A stretch of 64,000 nucleotides of DNA from Escherichia phage ES12. This document shows, piece by piece, positions 2,938 to 30,976 of this stretch. The notes beneath the pieces are model-generated. The model saw only the letters and a list, made by a program, of their open reading frames with translations, did no database searches and was not told the DNA's origin. How positions within the stretch are numbered: position 1 is the stretch's first letter; each line of letters opens with the position of its first letter. The translations under genes were made by a program, and so were the position numbers. The DNA lies in sequence record MN508614.1. One strand, written 5' to 3'.

Positions 2938-3156
2938 TTATGTTTTGCGACTAAATTGTTCATAGTGCTGAATTACCTCTCTTAAACAATTGCATGTGAA
3001 TGAAAACTTTTTAGCTACACCACATTCAAATATATGTTCTCTTAAATCACGTGTGTCAGTATATCCCATCTCAACGATAAAATGTCTTATTAAATTTTTA
3101 TCTTTATCATTAAGAGAATTAAAATAATCAGATTTTGAATTAATTTCCCTGGCCAA
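2938..3156 (-). CDS. Hypothetical protein, 72 aa (arn-motA interval)
   Basis: Minus-strand ORF in the compact early operon between arn and motA; contains CGV...CNC cysteines. Confidence 0.5.
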   Translation of the reverse strand: MAREINSKSDYFNSLNDKDKNLIRHFIVEMGYTDTRDLREHIFECGVAKKFSFTCNCLREVIQHYEQFSRKT

Positions 3157-3436
3157 ATTGAATCACCTTCAGTTGACGTTTTAATTCTTTTATCATTTCT
3201 TCGTTCATCGCAATATAAAGATCGCGTAAAGCAGGTTTTAACATTCCATTTACTGGAGAACTAAATGGACACACATAATCTTTTCCTACGAGCTTTTTGG
3301 CGAATTCCATATTACAGAACTTAAATCCCGGCTCATTGGTATAAATTCCCCAATTAGTTGACATCATTTTATTAGCATATTCCAGTGCCTGGATTTGATT
3401 CATAATTCCATCGATTTGAAACTTTTTAATATTCAT
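3140..3436 (-). CDS. Hypothetical protein, 98 aa (arn-motA interval)
   Basis: Minus-strand ORF tightly packed with neighbours (stop/start overlaps). Confidence 0.55.
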   Translation of the reverse strand: MNIKKFQIDGIMNQIQALEYANKMMSTNWGIYTNEPGFKFCNMEFAKKLVGKDYVCPFSSPVNGMLKPALRDLYIAMNEEMIKELKRQLKVIQFGQGN

Positions 3437-26860: not shown

Positions 26861-26931
26861 TATTTTTCCTTTCAATTCATGGGTTAGTAGATTAATTATA
26901 CAATAAATATATAAAGCAATAAGGAGGACAT

Positions 26932-27132
26932 ATGGTACAAAAATTAATGGCACTTGTTAATGCCATCAAAGGTAATAAAAAGCGTATAGCTTTTACTATT
27001 TCTGCTATGGTAGGAATTTTACTCTGGAACTTTATTTTATCACCTGTTGCAATTGCACATGGTATTAATATTCCAGTAGTTACTCTTGATACATTCGTAG
27101 ATTTAGCATTTGCTTTGGTTGGGTTAATTTAA
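26932..27132 (+). CDS. Membrane protein, 66 aa, plus strand, convergent with gene 61
   Basis: Strong SD AAGGAGG 5 nt before the ATG; two hydrophobic helices. Confidence 0.5.
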   Translation: MVQKLMALVNAIKGNKKRIAFTISAMVGILLWNFILSPVAIAHGINIPVVTLDTFVDLAFALVGLI

Positions 27133-28157
27133 ATCTTAGCATATTTAGATAGCCGCATTTTAGCCATCAACCCTTGGGCAATATTATTTTTCATATATTC
27201 CATAATTTGTTTAGGGGTTGCACCTTCCTTTCTAATCATATCATTAACATCTTTTGATTTCCAGGGAGATTTGTCCCAAAACATAACCCTTTCTCCTGCA
27301 TCAACCAATTTAGTCATTCGTTTAATAGTGTCAGGGTGACGAGGTTCATTATCTAAAACCCATACACGTCTATCTTTAAATGGAACAATTTCTAGGTCTA
27401 ATTGACCACCCGTAATAGCTATACCATTTTCAATAAAAAGTGAATCTATAGGTCCTTCTAGAACATATACATCACCATCTTTAACTCGTTCGACTCCATA
27501 GATTTTTGTTGCCTCAGGATAAGCTTTAATGGTGATATATTTTTGAGGAGCATTTTTCTTTAATGCACGTCCTTGAAAAGACTCAGCTTTTCCATTAGCA
27601 TTATAAATTGGAATAACAAGACGAGGCTCAGATATTTCCTTTTTATATGTTCCCGGTGCTATGCTATTAACCAATTTAGGCCATTCGGTTGTAAACCAAA
27701 GATATTTCCATTTATCCTTTGGAATACAACGAGCTTTTACATATTTTATAATTGGATGGTCTTCCGCCAGTTTATCTAATCTAACACATGACGGAAGAGA
27801 TTTAATTATTTTCTTCTCAGGTTGTTTAGGAAGTTCTTTAGGTTTTTCTACTGGACGACTTTTACCTTTTTCTTTTCTTATTTCAAAGATATACTCACGA
27901 TATAAATCGGGTTCAAACTCCTTTAAATATATTCCGATTGGTGCATGATAGTTACAGTTATAACAATGAATATTTCCTTCATTATTATCACCATAATACC
28001 ATCCACGGGCTTTATTCTGGTCGGTTTTTGAATCTCCACACACTGGGCATCTAAACCGTAATTTAAAAGTTGAACTATTATTTACTTGTGTGAATTTAGG
28101 TAAATGAGCTAATGCACGATACGCAAACTCATTATCAATCCAAGGTATTGATGACAT
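27129..28157 (-). CDS. 61: DNA primase gp61
   Basis: 342 aa, N-terminal zinc ribbon CPVCGDSK...CYNC and Toprim; length matches T4 gp61. Confidence 0.95.
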   Translation of the reverse strand: MSSIPWIDNEFAYRALAHLPKFTQVNNSSTFKLRFRCPVCGDSKTDQNKARGWYYGDNNEGNIHCYNCNYHAPIGIYLKEFEPDLYREYIFEIRKEKGKSRPVEKPKELPKQPEKKIIKSLPSCVRLDKLAEDHPIIKYVKARCIPKDKWKYLWFTTEWPKLVNSIAPGTYKKEISEPRLVIPIYNANGKAESFQGRALKKNAPQKYITIKAYPEATKIYGVERVKDGDVYVLEGPIDSLFIENGIAITGGQLDLEIVPFKDRRVWVLDNEPRHPDTIKRMTKLVDAGERVMFWDKSPWKSKDVNDMIRKEGATPKQIMEYMKNNIAQGLMAKMRLSKYAKI

Positions 28158-28325
28158 TTTTACTCTTCTTTTTCTTTAGATTCCTCTTTTTTCTTTTTAG
28201 AAATCTGTTCAGGGCCTTTATTTACTACAGCGCCTGACGCTGTTCCAGTAGAGATATTTTCAGGATTACCACCTGAATCTCCAGCAACCATATCTTCTTT
28301 GATAAATTCTTTATATGTTTTCATA

Positions 28326-28682
28326 TTAACCTCTATTCATAAAAGCATTAAAAATTTGGTCATCAATAGATGGAATAGCAACTTTTTCTGCATCATTTAG
28401 CAAATCATTAATTTCATCAGATAGCATAACACATGTACCTTTATTTCCTGTAATTGTTACTGCGCAATTACGAACGTTTTCTTTATTAAATTTTAGGTTA
28501 ATATTTTCGTAATGAAAATCCTTTAATGCTGAATATATTTTTAAAATAAAATTGTCTTTTACTACAATAAACCCAACCTCACTATTAAAACGTGGTTCAT
28601 GGAAACTGTAATAAACCTTTTCATCTATAAAATCGTATGAAATTTTTTCCATTTTTAAATATGAAAATTCAGAACTATACAT
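28326..28682 (-). CDS. Hypothetical protein, 118 aa (61.1 position)
   Basis: Minus-strand ORF between genes 41 and 61. Confidence 0.55.
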   Translation of the reverse strand: MYSSEFSYLKMEKISYDFIDEKVYYSFHEPRFNSEVGFIVVKDNFILKIYSALKDFHYENINLKFNKENVRNCAVTITGNKGTCVMLSDEINDLLNDAEKVAIPSIDDQIFNAFMNRG

Positions 28683-28694
28683 ATTAACCTCTAA

Positions 28695-28988
28695 TTACTC
28701 ACCTACCACTTCAGCGATGATATTTTTATTATTAAAGTTTTTATCGCAATACAGAACATAATTATACTGCATTACACCACCAGACTTAAGCTGTTTTTGC
28801 ACTTCAGCTTTCATTTCAGGGCGATCGCGCTCAACGATATTCATAATATCTGCTTCAATTTGAGTTTCAACCTCGGTTTGATCAGCAGTCATAGACCATT
28901 CGCACAAATCTTTATCATAACCTGCCATAGCAGGCTGAGCAGCACAAGAAGCTAAAGCAAAAATTGTGGCAAAGATAAATTTTTTCAT
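28695..28988 (-). CDS. sp: Spackle-like periplasmic protein (superinfection exclusion)
   Basis: 97 aa with cleavable signal peptide MKKFIFATIFALASCAAQPAMAGYD; length and locus match T4 sp. Confidence 0.6.
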   Translation of the reverse strand: MKKFIFATIFALASCAAQPAMAGYDKDLCEWSMTADQTEVETQIEADIMNIVERDRPEMKAEVQKQLKSGGVMQYNYVLYCDKNFNNKNIIAEVVGE

Positions 28989-29048
28989 GATAATCTCCTC
29001 GGTAGTTTATGTTTATATAGTATCTCAATTTCCAACAAAAGTAAATAG

Positions 29049-29306
29049 TTATTTTAAAACTTCTGCGTAATCACATGTTACAAACTGTTTCTCTAGCTTG
29101 ACGATTTTACGAAAGTATCTTTTGCATTGGCGAATCTGCCTCTTCGTAGGACGTACAGCAAACTTAATAAATTCCACTCGACCAAATGGAGGACTTTCTT
29201 CTGCTGGAATATCTAACACCAATTCCCATGTATCTGCAATAAGTGCTTTGAATTGCGTATTTTTCCTGACGTTATACGGAGTAGGTTTAAATAAAACAAT
29301 ATGCAT
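29049..29306 (-). CDS. Basic 85-aa protein (61.4 position; possible TifA-like anti-toxin factor)
   Basis: Start placed at the internal ATG 2 nt after the dmd stop; Lys/Arg-rich; the track ORF is 99 aa from an upstream start. Confidence 0.5.
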   Translation of the reverse strand: MHIVLFKPTPYNVRKNTQFKALIADTWELVLDIPAEESPPFGRVEFIKFAVRPTKRQIRQCKRYFRKIVKLEKQFVTCDYAEVLK

Positions 29307-29307
29307 A

Positions 29308-29490
29308 TTATCCTCGGCAATCCACTTCACATACTTTCTTGTCATCAATGAAAGCTTTAACTAGTGCTTTATTAACTTCAGCATATTGAGTAGTAGCCCA
29401 TTGAACGTCATCTTTCATCATTGTGATCTCTTTAGTAAACATGCTTTCATTCTTAAACCACCCCATAAAAACTACCTTTACCAATTCCAT
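29308..29490 (-). CDS. dmd: Dmd, inhibitor of host RnlA/LsoA toxins
   Basis: 60 aa, MELVKVVFMGWFKNESMFTKEI... matches remembered T4 Dmd, immediately upstream of gene 41. Confidence 0.8.
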   Translation of the reverse strand: MELVKVVFMGWFKNESMFTKEITMMKDDVQWATTQYAEVNKALVKAFIDDKKVCEVDCRG

Positions 29491-29548
29491 AACAATCTCC
29501 TCATTTAACCAACAAGACTACTATACCATAGTCTTGTCAGCTTGTAAA

Positions 29549-30976
29549 CTAAAATTTTAATTCATTTGCCAAAGCATCTAACTGAGCTCGAGTCGATTCG
29601 TTTCTTTGATAGCGATTCTGCTCAGCTTGTATCTGTTGTGAACCTGCTACCTCACTCACTTCAGTTGGAGTAGAATCTTGTTCAATTTCTACCCATTTCT
29701 GATTTCCTTTTTGAACACCCATCAAAAACTTATTCCATTTGTTCTTATCGCCATATCGTGATTTGATTTGCTTAATGAGTTGCTGTTCAGCAGCTGCTAA
29801 CTCCTCGGTTTCAATGACCGCAAGCATAAAATCGGCTGTTGCTGGAAGACCGGCAGATTCTGCGATATCACTCATGTTAACATCAGAAGAATCCCAAGCT
29901 TGTTTACCAACCTGTGCTGCGGTCCAAAGAACAGTTTCGGTTTCAACAGCCAGAGCACGCAATTCCTCTGCGATAGCTTTAACAGTTGTGTAACTATTTT
30001 CTGAATAAACTCTAATGCGGCAAGATTTACAAATACCCAGATAGTCAACAATAATGATTGTTGGAACAAAATTCTTCTTGAGCTTTAATTCATTTAAAAG
30101 TGATCGAAATGTATTAGCGTCTGCTCCACCAGTAGGATACTGTTTAACGATTAAACGACCAAGAGTAGATTTCTCACGCCATTTTTCCATTTTTCCTTTA
30201 TACTCAGCGTAAGAAATATGCCCATCATCAATGTCATCAAGAGAAACATCAAGCATATTAGCATCAATACGCTTAGCACAGACTTCTTCTGCCATTTCCA
30301 TGGAAATGTAAAGAACATTATGTCCGAGCTGCAAATAATCTGCTGCCAATGAACACAGACCTAATGACTTACCAACGTTAACGCCAGCCATTAAAACGTT
30401 CAGTGTTCCTGTCTCAGCTCCGCCTTTAGTAATTTTGTTTAGAATTCTGAGTTTAAATGGAACTTTACGAGCTTTATTCATATAAGATAGCCAGCGTGCT
30501 TCGTAGTCATCCATCCAATCATGACCAACGTAGCTATCAAATGAAATTGATAATGCTTGACGCATGATATCAGGAATAGCACCTACATCTGGCATTTTCT
30601 TATTTCGTTTTTCCGGAGGAAGTTCAGCATTAGTTTGGATTTCAATTATTTTAGACGTAGCATTAAACATCGCCCTTTGCTGAACATATTTTTCTGTTTC
30701 TTTTACTAACCAACTGTGGTCTTCCGGAGAATCAGCCAGTTTTGAAATAAGTGTTTTTACACCAGAATATTCTGTTTCAGTAAATGAACTATTTTCTAAT
30801 GCAACATTTAACGCATTAATAGATGGAACGCTATGATACTCATTAACATGAGATTTAATTAATTTGAATGTATTTTTAGCTGGACCACTTTCAAAATATT
30901 CTGAATCCATATATGGCCAAACTTTTGAAAAATAAGCTTGATCAAATATAAGATGAGAAAGAATAATTTCTACCAC
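29549..30976 (-). CDS. 41: Replicative helicase gp41 (DnaB-like)
   Basis: 475 aa; length and position match T4 gp41. Confidence 0.97.
   Translation of the reverse strand: MVEIILSHLIFDQAYFSKVWPYMDSEYFESGPAKNTFKLIKSHVNEYHSVPSINALNVALENSSFTETEYSGVKTLISKLADSPEDHSWLVKETEKYVQQRAMFNATSKIIEIQTNAELPPEKRNKKMPDVGAIPDIMRQALSISFDSYVGHDWMDDYEARWLSYMNKARKVPFKLRILNKITKGGAETGTLNVLMAGVNVGKSLGLCSLAADYLQLGHNVLYISMEMAEEVCAKRIDANMLDVSLDDIDDGHISYAEYKGKMEKWREKSTLGRLIVKQYPTGGADANTFRSLLNELKLKKNFVPTIIIVDYLGICKSCRIRVYSENSYTTVKAIAEELRALAVETETVLWTAAQVGKQAWDSSDVNMSDIAESAGLPATADFMLAVIETEELAAAEQQLIKQIKSRYGDKNKWNKFLMGVQKGNQKWVEIEQDSTPTEVSEVAGSQQIQAEQNRYQRNESTRAQLDALANELKF

Follow-up and report, generated by a model that had tools for sequence, protein, structure and literature searches.

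Introduction

In bacteriophage T4, a region harbouring dmd, tifA and adfA (61.2) has been proposed as an 'anti-TA island' (Srikant et al. 2022, PMC9391042). In this phage, dmd and tifA form a two-gene operon that is expressed from an early promoter located upstream of dmd (PMC9391042). Gene 61.4 was renamed tifA, and its product was shown to inhibit ToxN (Srikant et al. [quoted passage not shown] TifA binds RNA via a basic C-terminal helix, comprising a P53-T54 cap, K55, R56 and R59, and RNA binding is required for both the binding and the inhibition of ToxN (Guegler et al., PMC10853763). The strength of inhibition is tuned by residue 41 (T4 F41 weak, S or H stronger), and the TifA proteins of T2 and T6 (>96% identity to that of T4) inhibit ToxN as well (PMC10853763). 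AdfA, or anti-DarT factor A, is the product of T4 61.2 (PMC9391042, PMC11825919). T4 AdfA is dispensable for DarTG1 resistance (PMC11825919), and T2 has been described as a phage that naturally has no adfA homolog and yet resists DarTG1, owing to AdfN (LeRoux lab, PMC11825919). Spackle inhibits the gp5 tail lysozyme of superinfecting T-even phages, as described for the Spackle-gp5 complex (PMC7677548).

The corresponding block was analysed in the window, the whole 64,000-nt stretch of DNA under study. As judged by sequence comparison, it is very probably the T2/RB14-type version of the T-even 'anti-TA island', in which Dmd, TifA and Spackle would act as in T4 and a 118-aa protein (p118) occupies the adfA slot.

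Results

Layout and conservation of the locus

According to the ORF list and the sequence, every gene of this section lies on the minus strand, and the order of transcription is gene 41, the 60-, 85-, 97-, 118- and 54-aa ORFs and gene 61 (Table 1). Positions 28326-29490 enclose exactly four small minus-strand ORFs (118, 97, 85 and 60 aa), as stated in an earlier note on this DNA; between genes 61 and 41, however, there are five in all, the 54-aa gene 61.1 having been omitted there. In the same order, the short spacers measure 58 nt (gene 41 to the 60-aa ORF, dmd), 1 nt (dmd to the 85-aa ORF), 60 nt (85- to 97-aa ORF), 12 nt (97- to 118-aa ORF), 1 nt (118- to 54-aa ORF) and 2 nt (54-aa ORF to gene 61). 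The dmd stop codon occupies 29310-29308 and the next ATG 29306-29304, in agreement with the description of the 85-aa ORF as starting 2 nt past the dmd stop (ATG two positions beyond the last stop base).

Table 1. Positions of genes and sequence elements at the locus (window coordinates).
Feature	Position	Strand	Description
gene 61 (primase)	27129-28157	-	last in transcription direction, after the 54-aa ORF
gene 61.1	28160..28324	-	54 aa; putatively translationally coupled to p118 upstream and gene 61 downstream
p118 3' end, shared tail SIDDQIFNAFMNRG	28326..28370	-	high DNA identity to T4 resumes here
p118 (RB32ORF033c type)	28326..28682	-	118 aa; T4 61.2/adfA slot; probable short AdfA relative
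sp (spackle, T4 61.3)	28695..28988	-	97 aa; predicted secreted periplasmic inhibitor of superinfecting-phage gp5 tail lysozyme
tifA-sp spacer	28989..29048	-	60 nt; second conserved predicted early promoter and sp ribosome-binding site
tifA (T4 61.4)	29049..29306	-	85 aa; predicted basic RNA-binding inhibitor of ToxN endoribonuclease
dmd (T4 61.5)	29308..29490	-	60 aa; predicted antitoxin-like inhibitor of RnlA and LsoA RNase toxins
promoter-like site	29520..29548	-	TTTACA, 17-nt spacer, TATAGT, extended TG
gene 41 (helicase)	29549-30976	-	first in transcription direction

In a megablast search, 509 phage records matched 28100-29600 at ≥90% identity, nearly all of them Tequatroviruses (phages of Escherichia, Shigella or Yersinia). 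Escherichia phage ES26 (MN508618) alone matched at 100%. The window is a Tequatrovirus. Because as many as 509 records match at this level, the small ORFs are taken as real conserved genes and not as chance ORFs. Each of dmd, tifA, sp, p118 and 61.1 has a dedicated Pfam or PHROG family; NCBIfam holds no model for any of the five small proteins. The locus is syntenic with those of T4, RB14, AR1 and fPS-65, and pairwise alignment with T4 (NC_000866) gave 337 of 342 identical residues for gp61 and 474 of 475 for gp41. Searches of the whole window with the locus (tblastn and blastn) did not find a second copy of dmd-tifA, and segmental amplification of this operon in the window is ruled out by its single copy.

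The promoter-like site upstream of dmd lies directly past the gene 41 stop codon. It reached the top score in a promoter scan of the region (10/12, 29548-29520), and a predicted early promoter is annotated at the equivalent place in the fPS-65 record. It is the counterpart of the early promoter from which dmd-tifA is said to be expressed in T4. The tifA-sp gap, with a mean column identity of 99% to T4 and fPS-65, likewise carries a predicted early promoter in the fPS-65 annotation, with a -35 element that reads ATTTAC in ES26 and GTTTAC in T4; this promoter was missed by the simple promoter scan. Judging from the promoter-like sites, the block is probably transcribed early, and several of its genes are tightly coupled through spacers of 1-2 nt.

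Dmd, TifA and Spackle

The earlier note had identified the 60-aa ORF as Dmd, the 97-aa ORF as Spackle with an N-terminal signal peptide and, from position and composition, the 85-aa ORF as T4 61.4/TifA; all three assignments hold. Dmd is identical to its T4 counterpart at 60 of 60 positions (pairwise alignment), scores 156.9 bits against Pfam PF17587 and matches the solved structure PDB 5hy3_B ('Antitoxin Dmd') with an E-value of 1.8e-37.

For the 85-aa protein, the ORF caller gave a longer, 99-aa ORF that starts with TTG and overlaps dmd, and the ATG at 29306 yields 85 aa, as in the T4 annotation. The product is basic (pI 9.83; 17 K+R versus 9 D+E), differs from T4 gp61.4 at a single position (84/85 identical, I83V) and scores 72.7 bits against Pfam DUF7279 (PF23945, the TifA family; cut-off 24.5). 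Since 84 of 85 residues are identical to gp61.4, the gene is named TifA by sequence and not by position alone, and this name can safely be used. F41, P53, T54, K55, R56 and R59 are all present, and the gene follows immediately downstream of dmd and its upstream promoter-like site. No solved structure matches TifA by sequence. In every feature tested at the sequence level, the window protein is a T4-type TifA.

TifA-family (DUF7279) genes can occupy two positions in Gapriverviruses. One lies at the usual post-dmd position in MN01 (L003 470-709), and a 73-aa DUF7279 gene is found downstream of the p118 homolog in SP18 (L004 1859-2080) and VR20 (L005 1811-2032); JS98 and IME08 have two TifA-like places per genome. 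These second TifA-family genes look like natural paralogues of the gene that T4 amplifies under toxIN selection.

Spackle is identical to T4 Sp at 96 of 97 positions (pairwise alignment) and matches both Pfam T4_Spackle (PF25676, 151.1 bits) and PDB 6x6o_A (E 8e-62). Chain 7cn6_A, the mature form, begins at residue 23, as would be expected if the signal peptide is cleaved after A22. Mosigviruses carry imm and imm.1 between tifA and sp, as in RB69 (L010 3012-3690) and Mizar (L009 704-1442), so that two exclusion systems lie side by side. In T4, imm and imm.1 lie elsewhere, near gene 43.

The 118-aa protein in the adfA slot

The 118-aa ORF had been listed as an unknown in the earlier note, a description that does not hold: it encodes a recognisable AdfA relative, scoring 34.4 bits against the Pfam AdfA model (PF23813, cut-off 27) and sharing its C-terminal peptide. 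It also matches PHROG 4122 with 242 bits. The Pfam match covers only profile positions 113-211 of 211, T4 AdfA aligning to positions 1-211, and residues 1-103 of p118 (last 15 aa removed) gave no AdfA Pfam match at E≤1. The p118 homolog of MN01 reached only 20.5 bits against the AdfA profile, all in the tail. Profile-profile comparison (hhalign) of p118 and AdfA gave 98% probability with the tail. Without it, the matches were marginal (AdfA 31-73, E 0.0014, 18% probability; AdfA 123-167, E 0.008, 5%) and ambiguous between the two AdfA halves, both being centred on the 'hhVKDNxI' strand motif.

An AlphaFold2 model of p118, built from an alignment of 8 sequences, had a pLDDT of 83, with values >90 for residues 8-100 and of about 50 for residues 101-118, where the tail is modelled as a low-confidence tethered helix. 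In Foldseek searches, the top match was the protein's own Gaprivervirus homolog, followed by AdfA-type and 145-aa proteins with TMq values of 0.51-0.55, among them the fPS-65 g037c AdfA fragment (TMq 0.51, E 1.5e-4), a 212-aa protein of AdfA length (TMq 0.51) and the 145-aa family (TMq 0.55). No solved structure matches p118 by sequence. Cys73 is invariant across the p118 family and aligns with the AdfA residue that decides on DarT1 binding (RB69 R164H, T4 H165); p118 has Cys and not the His that enables this binding at the position equivalent to RB69 164. Sequence and model together suggest, without proving it, that p118 is a distant paralogue of the C-terminal half of AdfA, and the gene can be labelled AdfA-related.

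At ≥90% identity, p118 is found in about 294 phage records, and the T2 protein is 94.9% identical. Members from other genera share 41-48% identity, with 34 invariant columns. The family is narrow: an exhaustive HMMER search of 1.84 billion representatives gave 3 clusters at 50% identity, and a word-indexed search for relatives only 5 close clusters. Two long repetitive proteins in the HMMER search were treated as compositional matches. Both the 85-aa and the 118-aa gene still appear as 'hypothetical protein' in the annotation of this phage and of hundreds of records like it.

A shared C-terminal tail

In a blastn comparison with T4, 26921-28370 aligned at 97.4%, whereas 28371-28693 did not align. 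The left junction falls inside the p118 ORF, so its last 45 nt are common with T4 adfA. The corresponding tail positions are 3133-3177 in T4 (L001), 1455-1499 and 1825-1869 in MN01 (L003) and 2789-2833 in AR1 (L007). The C-terminal peptide DDQIFNAFM is invariant in 13 genes from three genera, attached to three types of body: AdfA (~210 aa), p118 (~118 aa) and a 145-aa Gaprivervirus protein. Its codons show synonymous differences at ≥6 positions, which differ between genera, and this combination of synonymous differences with an invariant peptide indicates that the peptide itself is under purifying selection. Every junction of the array reads AGAGGTTAATATG or a near variant thereof, composed of a ribosome-binding site, the stop codon, 1 nt and ATG.

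The content of the slot differs between relatives: T4 has only adfA, ES26, RB14 and T2 have only p118, and AR1 has both, in the tandem order sp-adfA-p118-61.1 (L007 2201-3191). Because both genes sit side by side in AR1, p118 is regarded as a paralogue and not an allele of AdfA, and the arrangements of T4 and of ES26/T2 seem to have arisen by loss of one or the other gene from an array of two. Loss of p118 could be mediated by the repeated tails of ~50 nt. Places matching p118 exceed the matching records by 83, which suggests that about a quarter of the carriers also have adfA. Extra p118 copies in phiD1 (L008 2501-4037) coincided with N-filled sequence and were set aside, since the assembly has probably gone wrong across the tail repeats.

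The adfA-slot gene of fPS-65 (L011 2036-2661) is annotated with 157 aa, equivalent to T4 AdfA 52-208, and 152 nt upstream of it are unannotated; from its sequence, this adfA is probably frameshifted or truncated. A gene shortened in this way indicates that decay of the slot occurs as well, in some lineages.

Gene 61.1 and the dam/gene 56 side

The 54-aa gp61.1 is identical to the T4 protein at 50 of 54 positions (pairwise alignment) and matches PHROG 1823 (110 bits), with no Pfam or NCBIfam match. It has a Gly/Ser-rich middle and a KKKKEESKEKEE tail. Its Mosigvirus counterpart is longer (~155 aa) and has only the C-terminal part in common with it (PHROG 2086). In T4, genes 56 and 61 flank dam (DNA adenine methyltransferase), whereas the window lacks dam at this place, and a tblastn search did not find it anywhere in the window. 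The place of dam holds a hydrophobic 66-aa plus-strand ORF of the RB32ORF030w type (26932-27132), whose end overlaps that of gene 61. Gene 56 (dCTPase) has 77% DNA identity to T4 and its neighbours have 96-97%.

Discussion

The locus is a series of small, dispensable genes flanked by two essential ones, gene 41 for the helicase and gene 61 for the primase, and the functions of Dmd, TifA and Spackle are transferred here from T4 on the strength of near-identity. By this likeness, Dmd would bind and neutralise the RnlA and LsoA RNase toxins once their own labile antitoxins decay after infection, and its presence predicts that it is needed on rnlAB+ hosts. TifA would bind RNA through the basic C-terminal helix (P53, T54, K55, R56, R59) and also ToxN via a predicted interface including the residue-41 loop; it may trap the nuclease on abundant cellular RNA, with phage transcripts being spared. 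F41 marks the weaker, T4-type variant, which should therefore defeat toxIN at chromosomal level and not toxIN on high-copy plasmids. Allele content at this residue predicts behaviour toward toxIN and is of relevance to phage biology and therapy. Spackle would be exported to the periplasm and there block the gp5 lysozyme of T-even phages arriving later; this is superinfection exclusion, directed by phage against phage, and not an action against host defence.

The description of the block as a counter-defence cluster stands insofar as it matches the published 'anti-TA island'; it does not fit Spackle, a phage exclusion protein, and the 118-aa gene belongs in it as an AdfA relative. It is possible, though we consider it rather doubtful, that the grouping marks a hyperplastic spot between essential replication genes, which could take up any non-essential early gene and in which co-location reflects tolerated insertion and not a common role. 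Spackle serves superinfection exclusion and not anti-defence (PMC7677548), imm and imm.1 have been inserted into the same block in the Mosigviruses RB69 and Mizar, Gapriverviruses carry extra 145-aa, 63-aa and 73-aa genes at the locus, and the content of the adfA slot varies between close relatives. Two of the genes, however, encode experimentally shown inhibitors of TA toxins and p118 is related to another, AdfA (PMC9391042); moreover, dmd and tifA are co-transcribed and amplified together under selection (PMC9391042). The hyperplastic-spot and counter-defence views are not mutually exclusive. Given the exclusion role of Spackle and the presence of imm/imm.1 in RB69 and Mizar, the block is better called a set of variable early accessory genes, enriched in anti-toxin factors. 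As for TifA, selection for toxIN has repeatedly amplified its gene (PMC9391042), and the protein inhibits specific ToxN proteins, from which ToxN-interface mutations escape (PMC10853763). These observations make it unlikely that TifA acts chiefly as a general regulator or RNA-binding protein early in infection, with ToxN inhibition as a side effect, despite its binding of RNA, ssDNA and dsDNA without ToxN, its co-purification with cellular RNA and the many homologs that inhibit none of the tested ToxN proteins (PMC10853763). The two DUF7279 paralogs in Gapriverviruses would also fit such a general factor.

An explanation of p118 as a decaying adfA remnant, a pseudogene-like truncation with no function of its own, would account for its shorter length (118 versus 208 aa) and for its matching the Pfam AdfA model at the C-terminal end only, and truncated adfA forms do exist (fPS-65 g037c, AdfA residues 52-208). 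We judge it highly improbable, because an intact p118 gene is carried by about 294 records and retained in other genera, and its product folds confidently in the AlphaFold2 model (pLDDT 83). A simple truncation of adfA is ruled out: the p118 body shows no DNA match to T4 adfA, and full-length adfA coexists with p118 in AR1. A working guess, held tentatively, is that p118 inhibits by binding a toxin, as AdfA does, and differs from AdfA in its target. Speculatively, the sp-61.1 slot might house a modular family (AdfA, p118 and the 145-aa protein) whose interchangeable bodies set target specificity and whose flexibly tethered tail helix provides a common activity or partner, with p118 as an inhibitor of some toxin or defence system of bacteria and the repeated 45-50-nt tail as a recombination point at which cassettes are gained or lost. 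If true, phages like T2, which have been treated as lacking adfA, would possess such an inhibitor in p118. p118 is the only part of the locus without an explanation in the published accounts found, and the single advance on published work is the presence, in phages called 'adfA-less', of this conserved, putatively paralogous gene with the same C-terminal peptide. The p118/shared-tail family offers a starting point for experiments and is not in itself a discovery; as a specific candidate, p118 could be added at little cost to the next anti-defence screen.

Comparison with known systems

The anti-toxin biology of the block is already published for T4, of which the window is a near-identical relative. 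The T4 'anti-TA island' (PMC9391042) has the same position between genes 41 and 61, the same strand and the same order; its Dmd, TifA, Sp and gp61.1 proteins are 93-100% identical to those of the window, and the DNA is 96-97% identical on both sides of the adfA slot. Within the slot, the T4 adfA body (580 nt, L001 3178-3757) is replaced here by an unrelated 323-nt segment, 28371-28693, which encodes the p118 body.

AdfA proteins (PF23813; T4 gp61.2, RB69 gp61.2) have the slot, the C-terminal SIDDQIFNAFMNRG and the 'hhVKDNxI' motif in common with p118, with a Foldseek TMq of about 0.5. They differ from it in length and composition: AdfA has ~208-216 aa and both halves, whereas p118 is about half as long and lacks the N-terminal half, and the specificity residue is His or Arg in AdfA and Cys73 in p118. 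Once the tail is removed, the similarity between the AdfA and p118 bodies is marginal. The 145-aa family of the Gapriverviruses MN01, SP18, VR20 and VR25 lies in this slot too, with its gene immediately upstream of that for the p118 homolog, and ends in DDQIFNAFMKRD; its body has no detectable sequence similarity to p118 (hhalign E 0.06), and it has no Pfam family. RB14, RB32 and T2, in which p118 corresponds to RB32ORF033c, are identical to the window in gene content (dmd-61.4-sp-RB32ORF033c-61.1-61) and show point differences only.
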